In this document: piece by piece, positions 497 to 12,014 of the stretch
Numbering within the stretch: the first letter of the stretch is position 1
Layout: each line of letters starts with the position of its first letter
Notes under the pieces: generated by a model
Told to the model about the DNA's origin: nothing
The model's input: only the letters and a program-made list of their open reading frames with translations
Database searches by the model: none
DNA from: an uncultured Patescibacteria group bacterium
GTDB taxonomy: Bacteria; Patescibacteriota; Microgenomatia; UBA1400; PJMF01
NCBI GenBank assembly: GCA_905478415.1
Contig: CAJQIG010000005.1
Coordinates: 1,598 to 65,597, forward strand
Direction: 5' to 3'
Length of the DNA: 64,000 bases
Position numbers and translations under genes: made by a program

Positions 497-2300
497 ATAC
501 TTCATTTGTTTCGGTGCTAATGCGTGGTTGTATTGTAACCTGCTTTGGCAACTGGAGACCATCTTGATATACCGTCAGCGTATATTTACGTTGTTCGTAC
601 GGCAGAATGCTCGGTATCTTGATGGTTTTATTTTTTTGTAGAGTTACAGAAGGATCTCTTGATTCAAACTCTAAAGATATATTGTACCAGGCCTGCTCTG
701 TCTGGTTAGTAATGATGGCTGTTACGAGTCCTGGCAGTGGTATTCCAAAGACACGCTTCGGAATGAGTGCTACCGAGAGGTTAGGTGTCGCTGCTGGGAA
801 TGTTTCTGCAAACGAGATGGTAACGTCTTTTGCCGCTTCATTTCCTGTTGATTTATAGCTGCCTGCAGGATATGGAGTAGTGCTCGAGTTACCATTAATA
901 GCAAACACAATGTGGTTGAGGTCGAAGTTTGAAAAATAGTCTATACCGCCAGTAGTGTCTCCCCAAGTTGGGTCTATCGGAATCCAGAGTTCTTTTTCTT
1001 CGTTCCAGTATTCTGGCCAAGCATGCAGGATATCCCCCTCAAAACTAGAAGGTCTGAGATCATCATTTTCGGCATAGCCATAGCCAGTATTTCTTCGGGC
1101 TGGGATAGCTGCTGCTCTGGCAAGGGTAATAAAGGTATCACTAAATTCTTGACAGACTGCTTGTTCTGGATTTTCAAAGGCTTCGACTGCTCCTTGTCGT
1201 GAACTACCCTCGCTTAAATCACCAGTGCTGTAGGTGAGTGTCTTGACGACGTAATCATACATTTCTTTAGGGGTGCGATATTTTCTTACTAGATCTTGGA
1301 TAAGTGGATCTTGTACTTCCCAATAGGTATCTGCTTGCAAACTTTGTGCAGAGGGACGTAGTACAGGGACAGAAAGATTGGGTGTCAGTGTGACTAAAAT
1401 AGTAGCATTGACATAGACGTTAGTGGCCGAAGCAGGACCCAGCTTGTAGGTAGCAATCCAGTTGCCATCAGCATCAGTTTTGATATCTTCTGGAGCTGGA
1501 TCAATATCTTGGATTGAGATTTTTTGAAATGAAGTATCGGGTGGAAGAGCAATTTGAGCTAGGGTAGTTCCACTGGTCGAGTTTTCAAGCTGGTATCTTA
1601 AAGTGGCTGCATAGATTTGTTTATCTCCAAAAATTGCGGTAATGGGTTTCCCTTTCAGGTCATCGTAGCCAAGCACAAAGTAGTTATCTTTCGTATTTGT
1701 TTTGTCTGGATCGGGATCAATTCTTGGAGGATAGCCATACTGCTCTGGAACATACAGCTCAGTAGTATGTTGCGTATAGTTTGAAGCTTCGGGAAGTTCG
1801 GGAATATGAAGTTCGAGGACCTTCCCTCCAATAGTGGCCAAGTTTGTGTTCGAGTACTCAATGATGAATTTTCTAGCTTTACCTTGACCAACAACTTCAT
1901 CTGGAAAATCAATGGCGATACTAGTGCCGGAGTTATCTTTAACGATGTTAGGAATCAATACCTGGTCATCGTATCTGACGATAACATTTTGTAGATCGGG
2001 GTAGCTGGTTTTGAGTGCATATTGGGTAAGAAAAATAGTTGGTTGTTTGTTTGTGACGATAAAGTTATGAGCAACTTTAGTGACGCCAACAGCATCAACT
2101 GTGTAGGTTGATTTGAGGGTAATGTCGAAATTTTCATTTGCTTGTATTTTTGGCGGTAGTGTTACAGCTAAGCTTACAATCCAGCAGAAAAAAATGGCTC
2201 TAAGGATAGCCTTTTTGAAAGTGCTCATAGGAGTATTGTAACGCATTTGAGGTGTCTGAGTATGAAGAATTAGATACTGCCTTGAATTTTTGCAAAGCAA
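351..2300 (-). CDS. Secreted/membrane-anchored transglutaminase-like (Cys-protease-fold) domain protein. It has an N-terminal signal/TM and a C-terminal TM anchor. The true start is probably internal (Met at 2246 or 2228).
   Basis: The motif ...GAVEAFENPEQAVCQEFSDTFITLARAAAIPARRNTGYGY... resembles the transglutaminase-like core (Cys in a G..C..F motif, followed by GIPAR). The C-terminus is hydrophobic (AMAGSAVVLTLIAGSVLVL RQRR). A hydrophobic N-terminal segment follows internal Met residues. Confidence 0.55.
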   Translation of the reverse strand: MLCKNSRQYLILHTQTPQMRYNTPMSTFKKAILRAIFFCWIVSLAVTLPPKIQANENFDITLKSTYTVDAVGVTKVAHNFIVTNKQPTIFLTQYALKTSYPDLQNVIVRYDDQVLIPNIVKDNSGTSIAIDFPDEVVGQGKARKFIIEYSNTNLATIGGKVLELHIPELPEASNYTQHTTELYVPEQYGYPPRIDPDPDKTNTKDNYFVLGYDDLKGKPITAIFGDKQIYAATLRYQLENSTSGTTLAQIALPPDTSFQKISIQDIDPAPEDIKTDADGNWIATYKLGPASATNVYVNATILVTLTPNLSVPVLRPSAQSLQADTYWEVQDPLIQDLVRKYRTPKEMYDYVVKTLTYSTGDLSEGSSRQGAVEAFENPEQAVCQEFSDTFITLARAAAIPARRNTGYGYAENDDLRPSSFEGDILHAWPEYWNEEKELWIPIDPTWGDTTGGIDYFSNFDLNHIVFAINGNSSTTPYPAGSYKSTGNEAAKDVTISFAETFPAATPNLSVALIPKRVFGIPLPGLVTAIITNQTEQAWYNISLEFESRDPSVTLQKNKTIKIPSILPYEQRKYTLTVYQDGLQLPKQVTIQPRISTETNEVYEHKTLEATSGPAFISYVTDQTIIIAMAGSAVVLTLIAGSVLVLRQRR

Positions 2301-3097
2301 AAAGTCCCACTATATGAGGTGAACGTGAATGCTGTTTCGTTAATCTCAAGAATAGAGTAGATTCCAGGATTATTTTCTGAAAAATTTTCAGCTGCGATGT
2401 TTTCTGAGAATGCTGGGTTTGAAATGTAGTGTGTACCAGTTATTTCTTGGTGGGTAAGTAAATGCACATGCGCATTGAGAAATAAGTTTGCAGATGAATT
2501 TGCAAAAAGTTCTCTTATTATATGTGCATTTTTGTAGTACATGCCTTCTGGTTCATTCTCAAAATAGAAGCTGCCCTTTGAGTCAATAGGAATCAAAGAA
2601 TAGTGGGAGAGGATAATAGTTGGCTTTTCTCTTTGGAGCGCTTCCTTTAACCACTGAATTTTTTCTGTCGAAAGAAAAGCCCCATCGTTTTCATCTAGCT
2701 CGAGATCAAGCCAGAGAATGGTATGTGGTCCCAAAGTTGTTGTTCCGAAAAAAGTTGGTTCTTCTTTCAGTGTGTTTGCATAGATAGAATCAATTTCTTT
2801 CGGGGAAAATGCTTTGAGCTCATGGTTGCCTAAGAGATGAAGCGTTGGTGTAGGAATTTTCTGAAGAAGCGAGAGTGTTTTTATAAGATTTTTTGTATCA
2901 ATAGTTTTGTCATAGGTATCTCTGAGTGCGTCACCCATGTGGACAACTAGGTCGGGAGCTAGCTCTGTAAACTTTGGAATAAGCGCTGTCAGTGTAGCTT
3001 CTGCTTGGGTGTTTGCTTGGCGTACAACTTCGGCATGAGTAGTTGAATTTCTAGATGTTCCAAGGTGGATATCACTGATGATGAGAATCTTTTGCAT
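2270..3097 (-). CDS. Calcineurin-like metallophosphoesterase
   Basis: The N-terminus MQKILIISDIHLG and the motifs ...GDALRD... and GNHE are metallophosphoesterase signature motifs I-III. The gene lies between uvrA and the transglutaminase-like gene. Confidence 0.7.
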   Translation of the reverse strand: MQKILIISDIHLGTSRNSTTHAEVVRQANTQAEATLTALIPKFTELAPDLVVHMGDALRDTYDKTIDTKNLIKTLSLLQKIPTPTLHLLGNHELKAFSPKEIDSIYANTLKEEPTFFGTTTLGPHTILWLDLELDENDGAFLSTEKIQWLKEALQREKPTIILSHYSLIPIDSKGSFYFENEPEGMYYKNAHIIRELFANSSANLFLNAHVHLLTHQEITGTHYISNPAFSENIAAENFSENNPGIYSILEINETAFTFTSYSGTFCFAKIQGSI

Positions 3098-3121: not shown

Positions 3122-6091
3122 TTACTTCATGGCCTCAAACTCGGTTTTGAGGTATTCTCCAGTTGCAGAGTTGGGATTATCAGCAATATTTCGTGGAGTG
3201 CCGGTAGCCACAATTTCTCCACCGTAAATGCCCCCTTCTGGACCTAAATCAATAACCCAATCCGCATTTTTAATGACATCTAAATTATGTTCGATAGTAA
3301 TGACCGTATTGTTTTGTTCGACCAGTTGATCAAGCACCTCGAGCAGTTTTTGAACATCTTCAAAGTGGAGTCCCGTGGTCGGTTCATCGAGTAAGTAGAC
3401 GACATGCTCATGTGTTTTTGTAGAAAGTTCTTTGGCAAGTTTGACTCTTTGCGCTTCTCCTCCACTTAGGGTTGGAGCTGGTTGTCCAAGCTCAATATAT
3501 CCCAGACCGACAGCCTGTAGGGTTTTGACTTTTTTCCGGATGGTTCCATGGTTGATAAAGAAGTCGACAGCCTCGTCAACGCTCATGTGGAGGACATCAC
3601 TTATTGATTTATCTTTGTATTTTATTTCGAGTGTATCTTCGTTATAGCGAGCACCATGACAGACATCACAGGTGACATAGACATCAGGTAAAAATTGCAT
3701 TTCAATTTTAAGTTGTCCATCTCCTTGGCAGGCTTCGCAACGACCACCTTTCACATTGAAACTAAAGCGACCTGGTCCAAAGCCACGCATTTGGGCGTCT
3801 TTGGTGTTGGCAAAAACTTTTCGAACATAGTCAAAGATCTTAGTGTAAGTAGCTGGATTTGATCGTGGAGTTTTGCCAATTGGACTCTGATCAATCATGG
3901 TGACACGTTTGACGATGTCGGGTACAGTAATTGAGGTAATTGGTCCTGGAGCGCCATCAGTCATTTTACCGAGGTGCTTACGGAGGTGTTGATAGAGAGT
4001 GTCGTGCAGCAACGTTGATTTACCAGACCCAGAAATTCCTGAAATACAGACAAATTTGCCCAAGGGGAATTCGGCATCAACATTTCTCAGATTGTGTTGG
4101 TTAGCACCGGTAATTCTAATAGATCTGCCTTGGGAACCTGGAATGGCATCGTCAGAAACAATTTTTCGTTCAGATTTCTTTCCGTAGAGACTCTTTCGCA
4201 GGACATCTTTTTTACGAGAAAGATATTTAGCTGTTAGAGACTTTTTATTTTTGAGAAGTTCTTCTGGAGTGCCTTCAGCTACAATTTCACCACCGAGTTT
4301 GCCCGCCAGTGGTCCAAAGTCGAAGACATAATCTGCGGCTAGCATGATATCGCGATCATGTTCGACCACAATAACGGTATTTCCCTTTTTCTGTAAGTTC
4401 TGAAGTGTTTTGATGAGGCGATGGTTGTCTCGTTGGTGGAGGCCAATTGTCGGTTCGTCGAGAATGTATAAGACTCCAGTCAAGCCAGTGCCAATTTGTG
4501 ACGCTAAGCGGATCCGTTGGGCTTCACCACCAGCGAGCGTTGCAGCTTCGCGGTTCAGACTTAAGTAGTTCAGGCCGACTGATTTTAAGAAGTGTAATCG
4601 GGCGCTGATTTCTTTAATAATTGACTCACCGATAAAGCGTTCTTTTTCGTTGAGAATTTCCTTTTCTCTGAGAGTATTGACCCAAGCTAGACACTCATCG
4701 ATAGGTAAGGTAGTGATTTCGGCGATAGTTTTACCATCAATATGGACACTCAGAGCTTCTTCTTTCAGTCGAGTTCCTTTACAAGTTGCACAGGTTTGTT
4801 TGAGCATGTAGGCCTGAATTTCTTTTCGAATGTAGTCACTGTCTGTTTCGTGATATCGGCGCTCTAGATTAGTGATGAAGCCTTCAAATTGTTCGTGAAT
4901 GACTGTTTGTCGGCCAAAGCGGTTTTCTCCTTCGACTTTATAAACCTTGTCACTGCCGTGTAGGAGCGTTTTTTGAAATTTTGGTGAAAATTCTTCCCAG
5001 GGGGTTTTTCTAAAATCAAACCCAGCTTCTTCGACTACCGTGGTAACTAGTCGTGCCCACCAAGTATCATTACTGAGCATTCGAGCAAACGGAATGATGG
5101 CTCCTTCACTCAGTGTCAGACTTTGAGCAACAATGGTTGATTCGTCAATTTTAAGGAGTGTTCCCAAACCGTTACAATCTGGACAAGCACCATGAGGTGA
5201 GTTAAATGAAAAAAGCCGAGGTTCAAGTTCTGGAATCGAAATACCACAGTCACTACACGCTCGTTTTTCGCTAAAGAGTCGATCTCTGAATTCAGTGGGT
5301 TTATCTGGAAACGAAAGAGATGCATCATCAACCAGTGAGAACATAACTAAACCATCAGCAAGTTGGAGTGATTCTTCTACTGCAACTGCAATTCGATGTC
5401 GAAGTTTTTTCCGTTCTGCGTCATCTTTCAGTTGTTTAGAGCTAATGACTCCCCGTTCGATGACAACTTCGATAGAGTGTTTATTATTCTTAAGGAGATT
5501 TAATTCTTCTTCAAGATCATACATGCGTCCATCAATTCGAACTCGGCGATATCCTTTTTGCTGTAAGGTGTCAAACAGCCCAGAAAACTCACCTTTTTTA
5601 TCTCGAACTACAGGTGAAAAGACCATAAATCGAGTTGGTTGACCATTTTTTTCGAAATCAAAGATATCCATGATGTGAGACACAATTTGGTCTGTACTTT
5701 GAGTGGCAACCTCGAGTCCACAGTTTGGACAGTGTGGGTGCCCTACTCTGGCGTAAAGGAGACGTAAATAATCATATATTTCTGTGATGGTTCCTACGGT
5801 CGAACGAGGGTTATGTGAAGTAGTCTTTTGGTCAATAGAAATCGCAGGAGAAAGTCCATCAATTTGATCAACTTCTGGTTTTTGCATGACTCCTAGAAAT
5901 TGACGAGCATAGGAGCTCAGACTTTCAACGTACCGGCGTTGCCCTTCTGCATACAGTGTGTCAAAGGCAAGTGAACTCTTACCACTGCCAGAAAGCCCTG
6001 TAAAGACAACCAACTTATTTTTTGGAATAGTCAGGGATATGTTTTTGAGGTTATGCTCTTTGGCACCAGTAACGGTAATGTTTTGTTCCAT
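3122..6091 (-). CDS. uvrA: Excinuclease ABC subunit A (UvrA). The ORF-track start at 6205 is probably too far upstream. The Met at 6091 aligns with canonical UvrA N-termini.
   Basis: [67 protein letters not shown] is near-identical in pattern to the E. coli UvrA N-terminus. There are two ABC ATPase modules and zinc-finger Cys clusters (CPNCG, CSDCG, CEAC..C). Length is ~990 aa. Confidence 0.93.
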
Positions 6092-6216
6092 AGGACTTTT
6101 TTCTTTTTTTATCGAGTCACCATTATACCGAATAAAGTCCGACATTAGGAGGGTCATCTTTTGTAAAATATACTTTTGGGTGGAAAGAACATGAAAGTAT
6201 GGCATACTAGAGGTAT

Positions 6217-6702
6217 ATGGGAGAAACAGAGGGATTATTACGGTTCGTGACCACTGAAGAAGGTAGAGCGGAACTACAAAGAATCAAAAGTGGTACACAA
6301 CAGTTGCCAAATAAAGAGCTTCAGCAAGAAGTTTCGGGTGAAGCTGTAGTATTCCCCACCGCTGGGGAGTATCCTCCAGATGCATCACTAGAATTTTTCT
6401 TTACCAATCCAGACTTGCAAAAATATCGAGATGCAGTCAGCGCTGGAGTCGACAATTTTGCTTCAGAAGCACATAACTATAGAACTGCAAAACTAGCCAA
6501 AGAACATGGTGTCTCAGGCGCTCGTGTACTCCATTTGCTTGACGTCTTAGAAAGAACCAATGGTTTGGATCCATTGAACTTAACGCATGTGTTATTTGGA
6601 TTACATTTTATAAAAGATGTCGTTGATCAAGCTGTATTTCCAAAGTTAGTGGTAAATGCACAAAAGAAACAACAGCTTTTAAAGATGCAGGAAGCTTCTT
6701 AA
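6217..6702 (+). CDS. Hypothetical protein
   Basis: A 161-aa ORF in the uvrA-uvrB intergenic interval. No recognisable motif. Coding status is uncertain. Confidence 0.3.
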   Translation: MGETEGLLRFVTTEEGRAELQRIKSGTQQLPNKELQQEVSGEAVVFPTAGEYPPDASLEFFFTNPDLQKYRDAVSAGVDNFASEAHNYRTAKLAKEHGVSGARVLHLLDVLERTNGLDPLNLTHVLFGLHFIKDVVDQAVFPKLVVNAQKKQQLLKMQEAS

Positions 6703-6713
6703 AAATGTTTGTT

Positions 6714-7028
6714 TTATTTTGGAATCTTTTTAATTCCTTGTAGTCCCCAAATAGTCAGTATTCCAATGATCCCTTTCAGGATATAGAAACCATTTGGATC
6801 CAAGAAATCCTCTGTCATCTTTGTCATCTGCCCAAAGAGCAAATGAATCAGAATACTCAGCGGCAAAGTCAATAGTAACCAATTTTTTTTAGGTACCGAA
6901 ATATGAAACTTTGAGAAGAGTTTGGAAAGCAATGGAGCTAGGAGGGCGACTCCTATAAAAGAAGCTGCAAAATCAAAAATGGCATACCCGGCTATACGAA
7001 ACTGACGAAGGTACTCTACGGTGAACAT
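6714..7028 (-). CDS. Small hypothetical membrane protein
   Basis: A 104-aa ORF with two or three hydrophobic helices. No known motif. Confidence 0.35.
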   Translation of the reverse strand: MFTVEYLRQFRIAGYAIFDFAASFIGVALLAPLLSKLFSKFHISVPKKNWLLLTLPLSILIHLLFGQMTKMTEDFLDPNGFYILKGIIGILTIWGLQGIKKIPK

Positions 7029-7066: not shown

Positions 7067-7654
7067 CTATTGTACTTCAATTCCATAGCCAACCAGCAGG
7101 GCCAAAACTTCTGGCTGTGAAAAGATGGCTTTTTTTACTTTATTTTGATTGGGATCAATACTATAGTTCTTGGCACCTACAAAAGATGTTTTTTGAAGAT
7201 TTGAGCTTTGAAATATAGTTTTTTCGAGATCAGATCCGGCAAAAGTACTGCCTTCTAGATTTGTGTTTACAAAATCACATTCTTTGATAACGCAGTCAAT
7301 AAAAAAGCTTTTTTTAATGCTTAATTCACTAAAGTTACACAGTTCAATCTTGCACTCTTCGAACTTCCAATTGAGCAGTAAAGTATTGAGGCGTGAAAAG
7401 ATTGTACCTAAAAACTTACAGTTTTTAAAAGTAACTTCTTGAAAGCTGCAGTTGTCAACAATAATGTTTGAAAGATTGCAGTTTTGAAATACACAATCGG
7501 AAAATGTTGTGTTTGAGATAGTACTTCCGGTAAAGTCACAGGCTTTGAACGCACAGTCTGAAAATTCTTTTTGAGTTACATCTGTAGCAAGCTCAGAGAG
7601 CTTTTGAAAGTGTGCATTGGTATAGCTATCTTTTGTAAGTTTTGTAGGAATCAT
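7067..7654 (-). CDS. Pentapeptide-repeat protein (Qnr/MfpA-like right-handed quadrilateral beta-helix). It is translationally coupled to uvrB.
   Basis: The protein is built almost entirely of A(D/N)(L/F)xx pentapeptide units (CDFTGSTISNTTFSDCVFQNCNLSNIIVDNCSFQEVTFKNCKFLGTIF...). Its ATG (7654..7652) directly abuts the uvrB stop TAA (7657..7655), giving TAAATG. Confidence 0.75.
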   Translation of the reverse strand: MIPTKLTKDSYTNAHFQKLSELATDVTQKEFSDCAFKACDFTGSTISNTTFSDCVFQNCNLSNIIVDNCSFQEVTFKNCKFLGTIFSRLNTLLLNWKFEECKIELCNFSELSIKKSFFIDCVIKECDFVNTNLEGSTFAGSDLEKTIFQSSNLQKTSFVGAKNYSIDPNQNKVKKAIFSQPEVLALLVGYGIEVQ

Positions 7655-9913
7655 TTACTCAAGTTCCTTGATAGTATCTCTGAGAATGGCGGCTAGCTCA
7701 AAGTCCATATCTTTAGCCGCTTGGTTCATGCGTCGACGAAGTTTTGTGGCCATAGAGCGTTTATCGTATGGGGTCATGTCTGCAGGTTTTATTTTTGCAA
7801 TATCAACTTGCTCTGTTTTATTAAGTGCAATCAGAAGTTTAGCAGCCTTAGGCTGTTCTTTTCTTTTATCATCTTGTTTCTTTTTGAGCAGTCGTTTTCG
7901 GATGGGTTTGCTGATGGTTTCGGCAGTAATACCGTGTTCTTTGTTGTATGCAACTTGAATAGTTCGGCGACGGAGGGTTTCTTCGATAGCAGCTTTCATT
8001 GAGCGGGTATATTTGTCTGCATAGAGGATGGCGTGGCCCTCAATGTGTCTAGCTGCTCGGCCGATAGTTTGAGTCAGAGCTGTTTGTGACCGTAGGAATC
8101 CCTCTTTATCTGCATCTAAAATAGCTACCAAAGTAACTTCGGGTAAATCAAGGCCTTCTCTCAGGAGATTGATTCCGACCACAACGTCATAGACCCCTCG
8201 GCGTAAATCGTCGAGAATATCAGAGCGCTCTAGTGTTTCAATGTCTGAGTGAAGATAGGCAACTTTTGGGTATTCTAGTGGAGTGGAAATTTCATGAGTT
8301 GTTTGAAGGTGTCGATAGTACTTGTTTTCGATCGGGCCGACTTCCATTTGGGCCACTGGTAGCTCTGGGCTTTCCCAAATAGTTTTTTCAGGCTGGATGT
8401 CATTTTTAGTTTTTATTTTTCTTTCTTGCCAGCTGGCGAACAGCGAATCAATCTTTTGAGTGTCATTGAGATACTCGGTTAATGCTTCAGCCATTTTTTT
8501 GGTGAGAGTCGTTACTAATGTTCTCTGCCCCAATTGTTTGCGAGCAATAATTTCAATGACCAGATCTTCAATTTGATTTTTAATCGGGCGAAGTTCAATA
8601 TTTGGATCAATCAGTCCTGTTGGACGAATAATTTGTTCGATGGCTTTGTTTTCTGAAAAAGAAAGTTCTAAGGGTTGTGGAGTGGCCGATATGTAGCACA
8701 TGGTTTTGGTTCTCTCCATGAATTCATCGAAAGTGAGCGGACGGTTGTCGAGCGCGCTGGGCAGTCGAAACCCATACTCAATCAATGTTTCTTTTCGAGC
8801 ACGGTCTCCATTGTGCATGCCTCGGATTTGAGGGAGTGTCATATGACTTTCGTCAATCATAGTAAGAAAGTCACCATCTCCAAACTCTGTAGCATTATGT
8901 TGGAAATATTCTAGTAGTGTGTAGGGGGCGGAGCCAGGTTTACGACCATCAAAATGGCGTGAGTAGTTTTCAATACCATTTGTAAAACCAAATTCTTCAA
9001 TCATCTCCAAGTCGTAGTTAACTTTTTGTTCGAGGCGATAAGCTTCAATAATTTTTTCTTGGGTCCTGAGCTCATGCAATCGTTTTGCCAAGTCACTGCG
9101 AATTTCTTTGACTCCCTCAACTTGTGAAGTCTTGTTGAGCATATAGTGTTTTGCTGGAAATATAATGAATTCATCTCGGGCTGCGTGACTTTGTCCAGCA
9201 GCTTGATTTGAAGGTACTACTCTTTTACCACTAATGGGATCAATCCAAAAAATTGATTCAATGGTGTTTTCAAAGAAGTCGATTCTTAGTGCTCTATCCT
9301 CGTAGGCAGGCCAGAGTTGCAGACTGTCTCCGCGCAGGCGATAGGTCCCACGCCTAAAATCGGTGGTAGTGCGTTCATACTGTAAGTTGGTGAGTTGTAG
9401 AAACAGTGTTTCGCGAGCGATAATCTCGCCAATGGCGATTCTCAGCATCTGTTTACCATACTCAACTGGGGAACCAAGATTATAGATACATGATACAGAG
9501 GCAATGACAATGGAGTCGGGTCGAGTTAGGAGGTTAGTAGTTGATGCCAGGCGGAGTTTATCAATTTCGTCGTTAATAGTAGCTTCTTTTTCGATGTAGG
9601 TATCAGTGGTGGGCATGTATGTTTCAGGCTGGTAGTAGTCGTAGTACGAAACAAAGTAACTGACGGCATTATTTGGAAAGAAGTCTCGAAACTCTTGATA
9701 TAACTGAGCAGCTAAGGTTTTATTATGAGCGATTACAAGAGTAGGCTTCTGAATTTTTTCGATCACATTAGCCATAGTGAATGTTTTACCTGAGCCGGTT
9801 ACACCCAACAAAGTTTGGTGACGTTTTCCATCCGAGATACCCGCCACAAGGTCTTTAATAGCTTGGGGTTGATCTCCGGTTGGATGAAATGGTGAGTGGA
9901 GCTCGAACTTCAT
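7655..9913 (-). CDS. uvrB: Excinuclease ABC subunit B (UvrB). At 752 aa it is longer than the canonical ~670 aa, with a ~65-aa insertion in the C-terminal helicase domain.
   Basis: The N-terminus MKFELHSPFHPTGDQPQAIKDLVAGISDGKRHQTLLGVTGSGKTFTMANVIEK is classic UvrB. Helicase motifs DESH and YLHSDIETLERSDILDDLRRGVYDVVVGINLLREGLDLPEV are present. The C-terminal UVR domain reads DFELAAILRDTIKEL. The insertion NDTQKIDSLFASWQERKIKTKNDIQPEKTIWESPELPVAQMEVGPIENKYYRHLQTTHEISTPLEYPKVA sits between TEYL and YLHSDI. Confidence 0.93.
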   Translation of the reverse strand: MKFELHSPFHPTGDQPQAIKDLVAGISDGKRHQTLLGVTGSGKTFTMANVIEKIQKPTLVIAHNKTLAAQLYQEFRDFFPNNAVSYFVSYYDYYQPETYMPTTDTYIEKEATINDEIDKLRLASTTNLLTRPDSIVIASVSCIYNLGSPVEYGKQMLRIAIGEIIARETLFLQLTNLQYERTTTDFRRGTYRLRGDSLQLWPAYEDRALRIDFFENTIESIFWIDPISGKRVVPSNQAAGQSHAARDEFIIFPAKHYMLNKTSQVEGVKEIRSDLAKRLHELRTQEKIIEAYRLEQKVNYDLEMIEEFGFTNGIENYSRHFDGRKPGSAPYTLLEYFQHNATEFGDGDFLTMIDESHMTLPQIRGMHNGDRARKETLIEYGFRLPSALDNRPLTFDEFMERTKTMCYISATPQPLELSFSENKAIEQIIRPTGLIDPNIELRPIKNQIEDLVIEIIARKQLGQRTLVTTLTKKMAEALTEYLNDTQKIDSLFASWQERKIKTKNDIQPEKTIWESPELPVAQMEVGPIENKYYRHLQTTHEISTPLEYPKVAYLHSDIETLERSDILDDLRRGVYDVVVGINLLREGLDLPEVTLVAILDADKEGFLRSQTALTQTIGRAARHIEGHAILYADKYTRSMKAAIEETLRRRTIQVAYNKEHGITAETISKPIRKRLLKKKQDDKRKEQPKAAKLLIALNKTEQVDIAKIKPADMTPYDKRSMATKLRRRMNQAAKDMDFELAAILRDTIKELE

Positions 9914-9944
9914 ATCGGGCTATTATAACTTGAAACTGGTATAA

Positions 9945-10709
9945 TTGCGAAAAATGCACGTAACTGCGATTAAAACCCCTCGGCTTTTTGTGAATGACAA
10001 CCTTCTTGGTGTGATTTCGACAACTATTCCCCAATCGGCACTATCCGAACGGAGCGTTTTGGTTGTTACCTCTAAGGTAGTAGCCTTGTGGGAAGGGGCT
10101 GTAGCTGAAATTCCTCGCACAAAGGAAGAAAAACACAAATTAATTCAATCAGAGTCACAACTGTATACCAAACCAACGTCATCAAAATATGATTTGATGT
10201 TAACGGTTCGAGATGATGTTTTGGGAGTGAATGCCGGTATAGATGAATCAAATGTAGCTGAAGGTTTTGTGTTGTTACCAGAAAATTCCTATCAGTCCGC
10301 GGCACATATTTGGCAGTTTTTACGAAAGCAGTATGGACTGCGTGAAGTAGGAGTAATTATTACAGATAGTGTCTCTATGCCACTACGATGGGGCGTAGTT
10401 GGTAGATCCTTAGGTCATTGTGGGTTTAAAGCAATAAAGAGTCGTATTGGCGAAAAAGATCTTTTTGATCGTGAAATTACCATGACTCAAATGGCTGTAT
10501 CACAAGCATTAGCGACAGCTGCAGTGTTCGAAATGGGAGAAGTGGCTGAGTCCACTCCACTCTGTATTCTCACTGAGATCCCACACATAGAGTTTCAGGA
10601 CGCACCACCTTCAAAAGAAGAAATTGATACCTATAAAATAGCTCTTGAAGATGATGTATATGCGCCACTTCTTATGAATGCACGGTGGCAGAAAGGGCAA
10701 AAGGTATAA
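9945..10709 (+). CDS. CofE-like (F420-0:gamma-glutamyl ligase family) protein
   Basis: ...RSVLVVTSKVVALWEGAV... and ...LGVNAGIDESNVAEGFVLLP...VGVIITDSVSMPLRWGVVGRSLGHCGFKAIKSRIGEKDLFDREI... closely parallel Methanocaldococcus CofE (VLVVCSTVISKAEGR; VNAGIDASNVEEGSLLLP; VGVIITDTNGRCFRRGVVGFAIGISGVKAMKDWIGRKDLYGREL). Confidence 0.7.
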   Translation: MRKMHVTAIKTPRLFVNDNLLGVISTTIPQSALSERSVLVVTSKVVALWEGAVAEIPRTKEEKHKLIQSESQLYTKPTSSKYDLMLTVRDDVLGVNAGIDESNVAEGFVLLPENSYQSAAHIWQFLRKQYGLREVGVIITDSVSMPLRWGVVGRSLGHCGFKAIKSRIGEKDLFDREITMTQMAVSQALATAAVFEMGEVAESTPLCILTEIPHIEFQDAPPSKEEIDTYKIALEDDVYAPLLMNARWQKGQKV

Positions 10710-11331: not shown

Positions 11332-11952
11332 CTAGTATTTAAACTTTCTGATGAGTCCGACTACTCTGCCCTGAATCTGGACATTAGTAGCATAAATAGG
11401 GCTCATGGATGAGTTAGCGGGCTCTAAACGGACTCGAGTCACCTCTTTGTAGTATCGTTTGAGTGTGGCTAATCCATTATCTAAAAGTGCGACTACAATA
11501 TCGCCGTCTGCAACTTGGCTGGTTTCTTCAACTACAACATAGTCATCTTCTTGGATATGATCTTCGATCATTGAAGTTCCTTTAACTTGGAGTACGTATG
11601 ATCGTTTTTTACCACTAATCATTTCTGGAGAAACTTTAAAGGTAGCTCCTTCTTCAGGGTACGGTTCAATAGGAGAACCTGCTTGAATAAAGCCCATCAA
11701 GGGAAGGTCAATACTATCTGAAAGTTTGACAAAGGTTCGGTCAATGAGTTCAATTCCACGAACGGCTCCCTCATGCTTACGAATAACCTTTTTGCGTTGC
11801 AAAGCTTGTAGATGTTCATGAACTGTTGCCAAAGAAGAGACGCCAATTGAACCAGCAATTTCTTTAAGTGTTGGTGAATAGCCATTTTTTTGAATATACT
11901 GTCCAATGAAATCAACAATTTGTCGCTGACGTTTATACAAGGTGACGGCCAT
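11332..11952 (-). CDS. lexA: LexA repressor (SOS regulator, S24 peptidase)
   Basis: N-terminal wHTH (TLKEIAGSIGVSSLATVHEHLQALQRKKVIRK). C-terminal S24 domain with a GTSM (Ser) motif and VVGLIRKF (Lys). The cleavage-region Ala-Gly reads FIQAGSP. Confidence 0.85.
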   Translation of the reverse strand: MAVTLYKRQRQIVDFIGQYIQKNGYSPTLKEIAGSIGVSSLATVHEHLQALQRKKVIRKHEGAVRGIELIDRTFVKLSDSIDLPLMGFIQAGSPIEPYPEEGATFKVSPEMISGKKRSYVLQVKGTSMIEDHIQEDDYVVVEETSQVADGDIVVALLDNGLATLKRYYKEVTRVRLEPANSSMSPIYATNVQIQGRVVGLIRKFKY

Positions 11953-11991: not shown

Positions 11992-12014
11992 GTTCGGGCG
12001 TATGTTACCCGAAC
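11992..12014. promoter_or_regulatory. Candidate SOS/LexA operator: the perfect inverted repeat GTTCGGG-N9-CCCGAAC, 40-60 bp upstream of the lexA start
   Basis: A 7-bp perfect inverted repeat with GTTC/GAAC outer half-sites (Cheo-box-like ends, wider spacer) in the lexA 5' region. Flanking it are a CTGT motif and repeated CGAAC motifs. Confidence 0.3.

Follow-up and report, generated by a model that had tools for sequence, protein, structure and literature searches.

In the window, by which we mean the whole 64,000-nucleotide stretch of DNA analysed here, a gene for a pentapeptide-repeat protein (PRP) of 195 aa (7654..7067, minus strand) lies directly behind uvrB (9913..7655, minus strand; 752 aa). 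The uvrB stop codon (TAA, 7657..7655) is followed without a spacer by the ATG of the PRP gene (7654..7652), and both ORFs are in one frame across the junction GAG TAA ATG, the TAA-ATG at 7652..7657 of the minus strand being read directly from the sequence. A preliminary description of this DNA had placed the PRP start exactly at the uvrB stop, and this is borne out. An SD-like AAGGAA (7664..7669, minus strand), located in the 3' end of uvrB and 9 nt 5' of the PRP ATG, may act as its ribosome-binding site; the closest relative found, lineage L100, has AAGGAG at the equivalent position. A scan found no terminator-like site between uvrB and PRP, or just 3' of PRP. The ATG is taken as the true start because homologues begin at equivalent positions. 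The locus with an identical PRP is present in several marine metagenome assemblies, and the adjacency is therefore no assembly artefact.

The NCBIfam UvrB equivalog, whose cut-off is 743 bits, matches the uvrB product in two stretches with 929 bits; the product contains the Pfam domains UvrB_inter, UvrB, Helicase_C and UVR. Compared with the standard 653-658-aa UvrB model, it carries a clade-wide insertion of ~90 aa, and its close homologues are all 742-801 aa long. On the other side of PRP, 38 nt from its 3' end, lies the gene for a small membrane protein of 104 aa, TM104 (6714..7028, minus strand), with two segments above the hydropathy threshold, a third suspected by eye, and no match in Pfam or NCBIfam. 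It is followed by orf161 (6217..6702, plus strand; 161 aa), a lineage-specific filler of the uvrB-uvrA spacer on the opposite strand, and by uvrA (3122..6205, minus strand), with UvrA Pfam domains. The only family match of orf161, in Pfam or NCBIfam, is an NCBIfam one far below threshold (E 0.0099, 15.8 bits vs a cut-off of 284), and tblastn gave no match to it in the relatives L095-L099; it is called as a gene in metagenome records. The lexA gene (11332..11952, minus strand; Pfam LexA_DNA_bind and Peptidase_S24) lies 1.4 kb 5' of uvrB. The neighbours of PRP are thus uvrB, a small membrane protein, an unknown ORF, uvrA and lexA, and no biosynthetic enzyme was found among the window ORFs of at least 450 aa.

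The PRP superfamily is very large, and its members differ widely in function. In the case of the window protein, the Pfam matches are Pentapeptide_4 (8.7e-23), Pentapeptide (3.7e-17) and Pentapeptide_3 (1.1e-13), and the best match among solved structures is AlbG (2xt4/2xt2, E 4e-26, residues 11-194 vs 11-192), followed by MfpA, EfsQnr, QnrB1 and AhQnr (E 7e-9 to 3e-5). AlbG is the albicidin self-resistance factor of Xanthomonas albilineans and protects DNA gyrase. Known PRPs of the AlbG/Qnr class are rod-shaped, DNA-like beta-helices which, as dimers, dock on gyrase and free it from poisons; the interface of MfpA is with the ATPase/transducer domain of GyrB (PDB 6ZT5). The AF2 model of the window PRP (pLDDT 94.9, pTM 0.90) has regular short strands, and Foldseek with this model returns AlbG (2xt2_A) first, with a TM of 0.94, an rmsd of 1.5 Å and 31% identity, and next QnrB1 and MfpA (Qnr/MfpA E ~1e-10, TM 0.4-0.75). 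The scores stay far below every NCBIfam cut-off for Qnr (such as NF033086, 53.2 bits vs 240) or MfpA (NF000349, 27.4 bits vs 360); the closest metagenome homologues are annotated as 'fluoroquinolone resistance protein'. The protein is mildly acidic (pI 5.3) and has no signal peptide, the maximum Kyte-Doolittle(15) value over its first 40 residues being ~0. Secretion was considered and rejected, as there is no hydrophobic segment at the N-terminus. Sequence and model together place PRP, as a cytoplasmic protein, in the AlbG/McbG/Qnr/MfpA class, and in this the preliminary description, which had assigned it to the Qnr/MfpA, DNA-mimic type and would have counted a signal peptide against a cytoplasmic partner, is borne out.

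The resemblance to AlbG extends to several details. The two proteins are of a similar length class (195 vs 200 aa), each with a short N-terminal extension, and the beta-helix of PRP is co-linear with the eight coils counted in AlbG. The repeat register of PRP is interrupted in the coil that bears the loop in AlbG, where a register break with a short helical turn (residues 87-97; 7364..7396, minus strand) stands at the position of AlbG T87-A99. The spacing from F86 to F98 is 12 instead of 10, a 2-residue break of the 5-residue register, and DSSP assigns H to residues 86-88 of the model. At this position PRP has 4 residues fewer than wild-type AlbG and 2 more than loop-deleted AlbG. Near the C-terminus, a predicted cap helix (residues ~181-190; 7085..7114, minus strand) carries the motif FSxPEVLxLL, which aligns with FSLPEAASLL of AlbG, so that the two share FSxPE..LL. 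In the model the helix lies at residues 182-186 to 182-190; the motif, with P181, E182, V183, L184, L186 and L187, does not vary among the closest homologues. In known PRPs the C-terminal helix caps the beta-helix and has a role in head-to-head dimerisation (PMC8145042, PMC7897471), and, judging from its equivalence to the helix of AlbG, Qnr and MfpA, the cap helix of PRP is predicted to mediate dimerisation as well.

There are also differences from these systems. The AlbG loop is shortened by 4 residues in PRP, and PRP belongs to a Patescibacteria bacterium with a small genome. Unlike AlbG and McbG, PRP lies outside any antibiotic biosynthesis or immunity cluster. It shares with Qnr and MfpA a pentapeptide beta-helix of similar length and a C-terminal helix, but it lacks both Qnr loops, and no gene for a GTPase partner of the mfpB type lies beside it. 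The loop of AlbG (91-97) and loop B of QnrB1 are needed for poison-specific protection (PMC7897471). Because the required loop is cut to a 2-residue bulge, the sequence suggests that poison-specific protection by PRP may be weak, absent or different.

The short loop could even mean that PRP is no topoisomerase protector and that its work concerns neither gyrase nor nucleotide excision repair (NER). Besides the loss of a loop essential in AlbG and QnrB1, this would be in line with PENT (6fls), a Qnr-like dimeric PRP that has no loops and whose function is unconfirmed (PMC8145042), and with the very heterogeneous neighbours of PRP-family members. However, MfpA counts among the gyrase inhibitors although it has none of the extra-helical loops seen in QnrB1, AhQnr and AlbG (PMC8145042), so the loops are not required of every class member, and MfpA binds GyrB as a T-segment mimic (PMC7980463). 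The similarity to AlbG is moreover full-length and co-linear, including the dimer helix, and GyrI-like genes adjoin PRP-family members in two lineages. We regard a function unrelated to gyrase and NER as very unlikely. The gyrase of the cell itself is the most likely target, a proposal based on the fold shared with AlbG and on ~31% identity to it; sequence and fold thus favour the fallback of the preliminary description, a gyrase-protecting factor.

The distribution of the linkage was followed in five related lineages. In four of them, which are Pacebacteria-type (L095/96, L097, L098/99 and L221), UvrB is 78-80% identical to that of the window, and the order ppdK-eno-iPGM-lexA-...-uvrB-uvrA-transglutaminase-uvrC is kept; the window uvrA is 85-87% identical to that of L095, L098 and L221. 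No PRP, TM104 or orf161 was found in the uvrB-uvrA region of these four, where uvrB is separated from uvrA by a spacer of 48-324 nt or by one small ORF on the opposite strand. The linkage is thus missing in 4/5 related lineages examined. The exception is L100 (UvrB 92% identical), the only relative found with a PRP after uvrB; this PRP is 63% identical to that of the window, and the contig ends inside it. Between the window and L100, dN is 0.31 for PRP and 0.059 for uvrB, so that PRP evolves ~5 times faster, and dS is saturated. The L100 junction reads TAA-CGACA-ATG, with a 5-nt spacer that puts PRP in a different frame from uvrB. Neither the spacing nor the frame of the junction is therefore conserved between the two lineages. 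A readthrough fusion of uvrB and PRP, in frame across the single TAA, was rejected for the same reason, the L100 spacer shifting the frame.

A wider survey gave a similar picture. Homologues of PRP were collected by exhaustive search, a word-index search having given only 3 matches, and family loci were gathered with a degenerate DNA motif encoding NYxIDP…FxxPEVL, which returned 120 loci, all of them true family members. At the other 118 family loci, 91 of which have at least 300 nt upstream, no uvrB was found (0/118). Conversely, 80 diverse uvrB genes taken from a genome-collection scan with UvrB had no PRP up to 6 kb away, or as far as the contig reached where the locus was shorter (0/80); these genes cover all phyla with UvrB at most 49% identical and represent a broad background. 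The six closest PRP homologues, looked up individually, are in unrelated contexts. A DNA-repair theme around the family was also considered and rejected, since the 40 genes tightly linked to its members are heterogeneous; they include methyltransferases, GNAT acetyltransferases, cation-efflux transporters and NUDIX hydrolases. Only NUDIX/MazG-type genes recur beside family members, and a GyrI-like (SbmC-type) gene directly follows a family member in two lineages. Neighbour families were assigned by Pfam, a strict NUDIX-box regular expression having missed known NUDIX neighbours.

These data bear on the partnership with UvrB that the preliminary description had inferred from translational coupling, in which a DNA-mimic PRP would bind, regulate or protect UvrB or UvrAB and the coupling would set the stoichiometry. 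The in-frame abutting ORFs with the SD-like site, the DNA-like fold of PRP and the adjacency retained in L100 are all compatible with it. A literature search found no prior description of a uvrB/UvrB-PRP pair, in agreement with the preliminary description, hence the partnership would be new and, if true, would give nucleotide excision repair its first DNA-mimic regulator. Nevertheless, the absence of the linkage from four of the five relatives and from 118/118 other family loci and 80/80 other uvrB loci argues against it, as do the faster change of PRP than UvrB at non-synonymous sites and the fact that the closest characterised relatives of PRP all act on gyrase. The TAAATG junction, read earlier as a mark of partnership, is replaced in L100, and the proposed survey of uvrB neighbourhoods came out against conservation, with no lineage but L100 sharing the linkage of the window organism; absence from relatives is the outcome that the preliminary description itself had named as refuting the idea. 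The partnership is not supported, and we consider it the least probable of the readings discussed here. Hardly more probable is that this Pacebacteria sublineage has turned an AlbG-like PRP into a DNA mimic that acts on UvrB or UvrA2B2, or into a coupler of gyrase rescue to NER; such recruitment would explain why PRP stays behind uvrB across two synonymous-saturated lineages.

This persistence nonetheless deserves attention. Because the adjacency is retained across saturated synonymous divergence, the arrangement is more than short-lived and may be under mild selection. It is thus conceivable that PRP acts on gyrase and that its site behind uvrB has been selected, tying gyrase protection to the damage response. 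The nearest precedent for co-expression of a PRP with repair is qnrB, whose expression is tied to DNA damage, qnrB genes being SOS-regulated via LexA (PMC11126768). The proximity of lexA to uvrB and the clustering of uvrA, uvrB and uvrC in this region are in favour of such a co-option. The regulatory sequences point in the other direction. The only candidate promoter that a scan found for the uvrB-PRP unit is a promoter-like site 5' of uvrB, TTCGCA-18 nt-TATAAT (9922..9951, minus strand; 10/12 matches), which looks near-consensus and would be constitutive. It stands back-to-back with the -10 box of a divergent cofE-like gene, and L095, L097, L098 and L100 share the block TTTTCGCAATTATACCAGTTTCAAGTTATAAT, with 1-4 substitutions before the -10 box. 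A palindrome TTCGGG-N9-CCCGAA lies in the lexA promoter region (11993-12013) and is kept in L095, L097 and L098; no second site of this kind occurs near repair genes in the window, and a looser palindrome covers the uvrA -10 box in relatives. A search of the window for LexA-type operators, with either the strict or the looser palindrome, found nothing at uvrB or uvrA. The arrangement is also missing in the four sister lineages. Selection for a link to the damage response is therefore unlikely in our view, and the earlier phrase 'co-regulated with repair' would apply to PRP in a positional sense only.

Taken together, our results favour a gyrase-directed PRP inserted in the variable uvrB-uvrA spacer and passively co-transcribed with uvrB, a reading to which we assign a probability of about 0.7. 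What the genes encode, how PRP folds, how it joins uvrB and where the linkage occurs are firm, and from these the following course of events may be proposed. Within a marine Pacebacteria-type bacterium, a single sublineage would have acquired a gene for an AlbG-type PRP, which landed in the short, variable uvrB-uvrA spacer, probably together with the TM104 gene. Compaction of the small genome would then have brought the PRP ATG against the uvrB stop. Translation of PRP would take place on the uvrB mRNA, possibly by ribosomes fresh from termination at the uvrB stop, and the protein would most likely act on the gyrase of the cell. Its position behind uvrB would be the outcome of the landing site, and not evidence of work with UvrB. 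Like generic operonic genes after uvrB, PRP follows on the same strand without a terminator or spacer and has an SD-like site within the gene before it; the difference is that no conserved uvrB-PRP operon was found in other bacteria. The interpretation given in the preliminary description is, overall, partly supported.

The second gene of the proposed insertion can be followed in other genomes. TM104 is absent from the relatives L095-L099, and in the L108/L219 lineage a homologue 57-61% identical to it also lies after the PRP; TM104 has probably arrived together with PRP. Its homologues (n=88) are ~104 aa long, none has a precomputed Pfam domain, and the few with a source name are from Patescibacteria. 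The G+C content is 0.33-0.38 across PRP and TM104 vs 0.42-0.46 in uvrB and uvrA; for PRP the low value could come partly from a composition rich in Phe, Asn, Lys and Ser and not from a foreign origin. The uvrB-uvrA spacer appears as an insertion hot spot in this clade. The window protein documents AlbG-like PRPs in Patescibacteria, and the evidence points to a routine event, in which a small genome of this group received, at a variable site between genes, an AlbG/Qnr-class, probably gyrase-directed PRP from a family widespread in metagenomes. Where a genome is compact, a stop codon that touches the next start codon is no evidence of a protein partnership. By crude ORF calls, 13 of the 40 same-strand junctions in the window are of at most 5 nt or overlapping; tight junctions are common in this genome, and the abutment of uvrB and PRP is not special.

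The uvrB gene (9913..7655, minus strand) encodes a protein of 752 aa. Against the NCBIfam UvrB equivalog (cut-off 743) it reaches 929 bits, and its Pfam domains are UvrB_inter, Helicase_C, UvrB and UVR. The TAA stop codon of uvrB (7657..7655) abuts the ATG (7654..7652) of an ORF on the same strand (7654..7067) encoding a 195-aa pentapeptide-repeat protein (PRP), with Pfam matches to Pentapeptide_4 (8.7e-23), Pentapeptide (3.7e-17) and Pentapeptide_3 (1.1e-13). The junction reads GAG TAA ATG, with a spacer of zero and both genes in a common frame, and the start of PRP exactly at the uvrB stop, as noted in the preliminary description, is confirmed. An SD-like AAGGAA lies 9 nt 5' of the PRP ATG, which is well placed given that PRP homologues start at equivalent residues, and a sequence scan found no terminator-like site between the two genes. 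The identical uvrB-PRP locus is contained in several marine metagenome assemblies. About one third of the same-strand junctions in the window are separated by ≤5 nt or overlap, so that the zero spacer is unremarkable. A readthrough fusion across the single TAA (7652-7657) was rejected, as L100, the closest relative found, has the two genes in different frames; the shared frame in the window is probably a coincidence.

Several results indicate that PRP belongs to a broad AlbG-like family. The best match among solved structures, by far, is AlbG (2xt4/2xt2; E 4e-26), a PRP that gives Xanthomonas albilineans self-resistance to albicidin. AlbG is co-linear with the window PRP over residues 11-194, and in the sequence search it is followed by MfpA, EfsQnr, QnrB1 and AhQnr. 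An AlphaFold2 model built from an alignment of 70 homologues (pLDDT 94.9, pTM 0.90) retrieved AlbG first in Foldseek (TM 0.94, rmsd 1.5 Å, 31% identity), with QnrB1 and MfpA next in rank. These matches support the DNA-mimic-type identity first proposed. PRP scores far below the cut-offs of the curated NCBIfam Qnr and MfpA equivalogs, and is neither of the two. An exhaustive search recovered 122 family representatives with E ≤ 1e-30, rising to 2,229 when the threshold was relaxed to E ≤ 1e-10. A cap helix at residues ~181-190 (FSxPEVLxLL), invariant in close homologues, aligns with the dimerisation helix of AlbG; the role of the C-terminal helix in known PRPs has been described (PMC7897471, PMC8145042). 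The loop that AlbG needs for albicidin protection (PMC7897471) is matched only in part, by a register break of two extra residues. No N-terminal hydrophobic segment was found in PRP and its pI is 5.3, which fits a cytoplasmic location. By homology to QnrB1 and AlbG (PMC7897471) and to MfpA (PMC7980463), PRP would be expected to form dimers and to target DNA gyrase as they do, in line with the gyrase-protecting role that had been offered as a fallback.

The closest UvrB homologues place the organism among Patescibacteria of Pacebacteria/Microgenomates type. Four relative lineages (L095/96, L097, L098/99 and L221; UvrB 78-80% and UvrA 85-87% identical to the window) keep the order ppdK-eno-iPGM-lexA-(two divergent genes)-uvrB-…-uvrA-transglutaminase-uvrC, of which the 7.1-kb L221 contig shows the central part only. 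PRP, the 104-aa membrane protein TM104 encoded next to it (6714-7028, minus strand) and a 161-aa ORF (orf161) are absent from the uvrB-uvrA locus in all four. The spacer measures 68 nt in L095, 48 nt in L097 and 324 nt in L221, and holds one unrelated opposite-strand ORF in L098; it is a variable spot in the clade. Among the relatives examined, PRP follows uvrB only in L100 (3.1-kb contig, UvrB 92% identical), where the junction is TAA-CGACA-ATG, PRP is in a different frame from uvrB, and its identity to the window PRP is 63% over the first 79 aligned residues. Between the two, synonymous sites are saturated and dN is 0.31 for PRP versus 0.059 for uvrB. PRP and TM104 have a G+C of 0.33-0.38, lower than the 0.42-0.46 of uvrB and uvrA.

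The wider surveys were negative. A degenerate-motif scan of metagenome contigs gave 120 PRP loci, all true family members (30-59% identity), two of which are the window organism itself; uvrB was found at none of the other 118 (91 with at least 300 nt upstream). Individual checks of the six closest homologues revealed unrelated surroundings and no uvrB linkage, and none of 80 phylogenetically diverse uvrB loci had a PRP within 6 kb or to the contig end where shorter. A full-text literature search found no described UvrB-PRP relationship; the preliminary description likewise knew of none. That description suggested that PRP could regulate or protect the NER machinery, and named absence of the linkage in relatives as grounds for abandoning the idea; such absence is what we observed in four of the five related lineages, and together with the unconserved junction this distribution contradicts a partnership.

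We propose instead that PRP was inserted into the variable uvrB-uvrA spacer in one sublineage. TM104 probably arrived with it, since a homologue 57-61% identical also follows PRP in the unrelated L108/L219 lineage (L108:8171-8488, L219:3-269); its conserved family (~104 aa, 88 homologues) has no Pfam model, and the few named homologues are all from Patescibacteria. Given the lack of terminator and spacer, the conserved uvrB promoter (9922-9951) would most simply account for PRP expression, and terminating uvrB ribosomes might re-initiate at the PRP ATG. Since qnrB is under SOS control (PMC11126768), it is plausible by analogy that this placement was selected for tying protection of gyrase to the damage response, but no operator was found at uvrB. 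A conserved palindrome, TTCGGG-N9-CCCGAA, lies upstream of lexA, just downstream of its promoter (11993-12013), and a looser one, TTTCGG-N13-CCGAAA, spans the uvrA -10 box in L095 and L098; they are candidates for the clade's LexA operator. Both are missing from the window uvrB and uvrA promoters, the latter lost at uvrA where the insertion replaced that spacer.

Neighbours of PRP-family members are heterogeneous which, with the short loop, makes a function unrelated to gyrase conceivable. A gyrase target gains slight support from a GyrI-like (SbmC-type, PF06445) gene directly after PRP in two lineages (L116/L146 and L160), with an 8-nt overlap in one and a 7-nt gap in the other, possibly a two-gene gyrase-protection pair. 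Genes for nucleotide-pool 'house-cleaning' sit beside the closest PRP homologues (L171, L091-L093, L094, L118, L220) at a higher frequency than expected: the gene adjoining PRP is of NUDIX type in four lineages and MazG-like in one more. The order in L091 is PRP-NUDIX-Exo_endo_phos, where the two gaps measure only 10 and 8 nt; Pyr_excise is encoded 4 kb away.

An extra Metallophos phosphoesterase gene (2270-3097, minus strand) between uvrA and the transglutaminase-like gene is absent in L095 and L098, and so is another lineage-specific indel of the NER cluster. The uvrA of L097 (L097:9311-12608) is broken across three reading frames, which points to a pseudogene or to a fault in the assembly. 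At 9914-9953 the TATAAT boxes of uvrB and of a divergent cofE-like gene stand back to back, each just 9 nt from the start codon of its gene, and so in L100 as in the window the transcripts are probably near-leaderless; uvrB leaders are longer in the other relatives. Throughout the clade UvrB has 742-801 aa, ~90 aa more than the 653-658 aa of the standard model, owing to an insertion at residues ~487-547 (gene at 7655-9913, minus strand), before the second helicase lobe.
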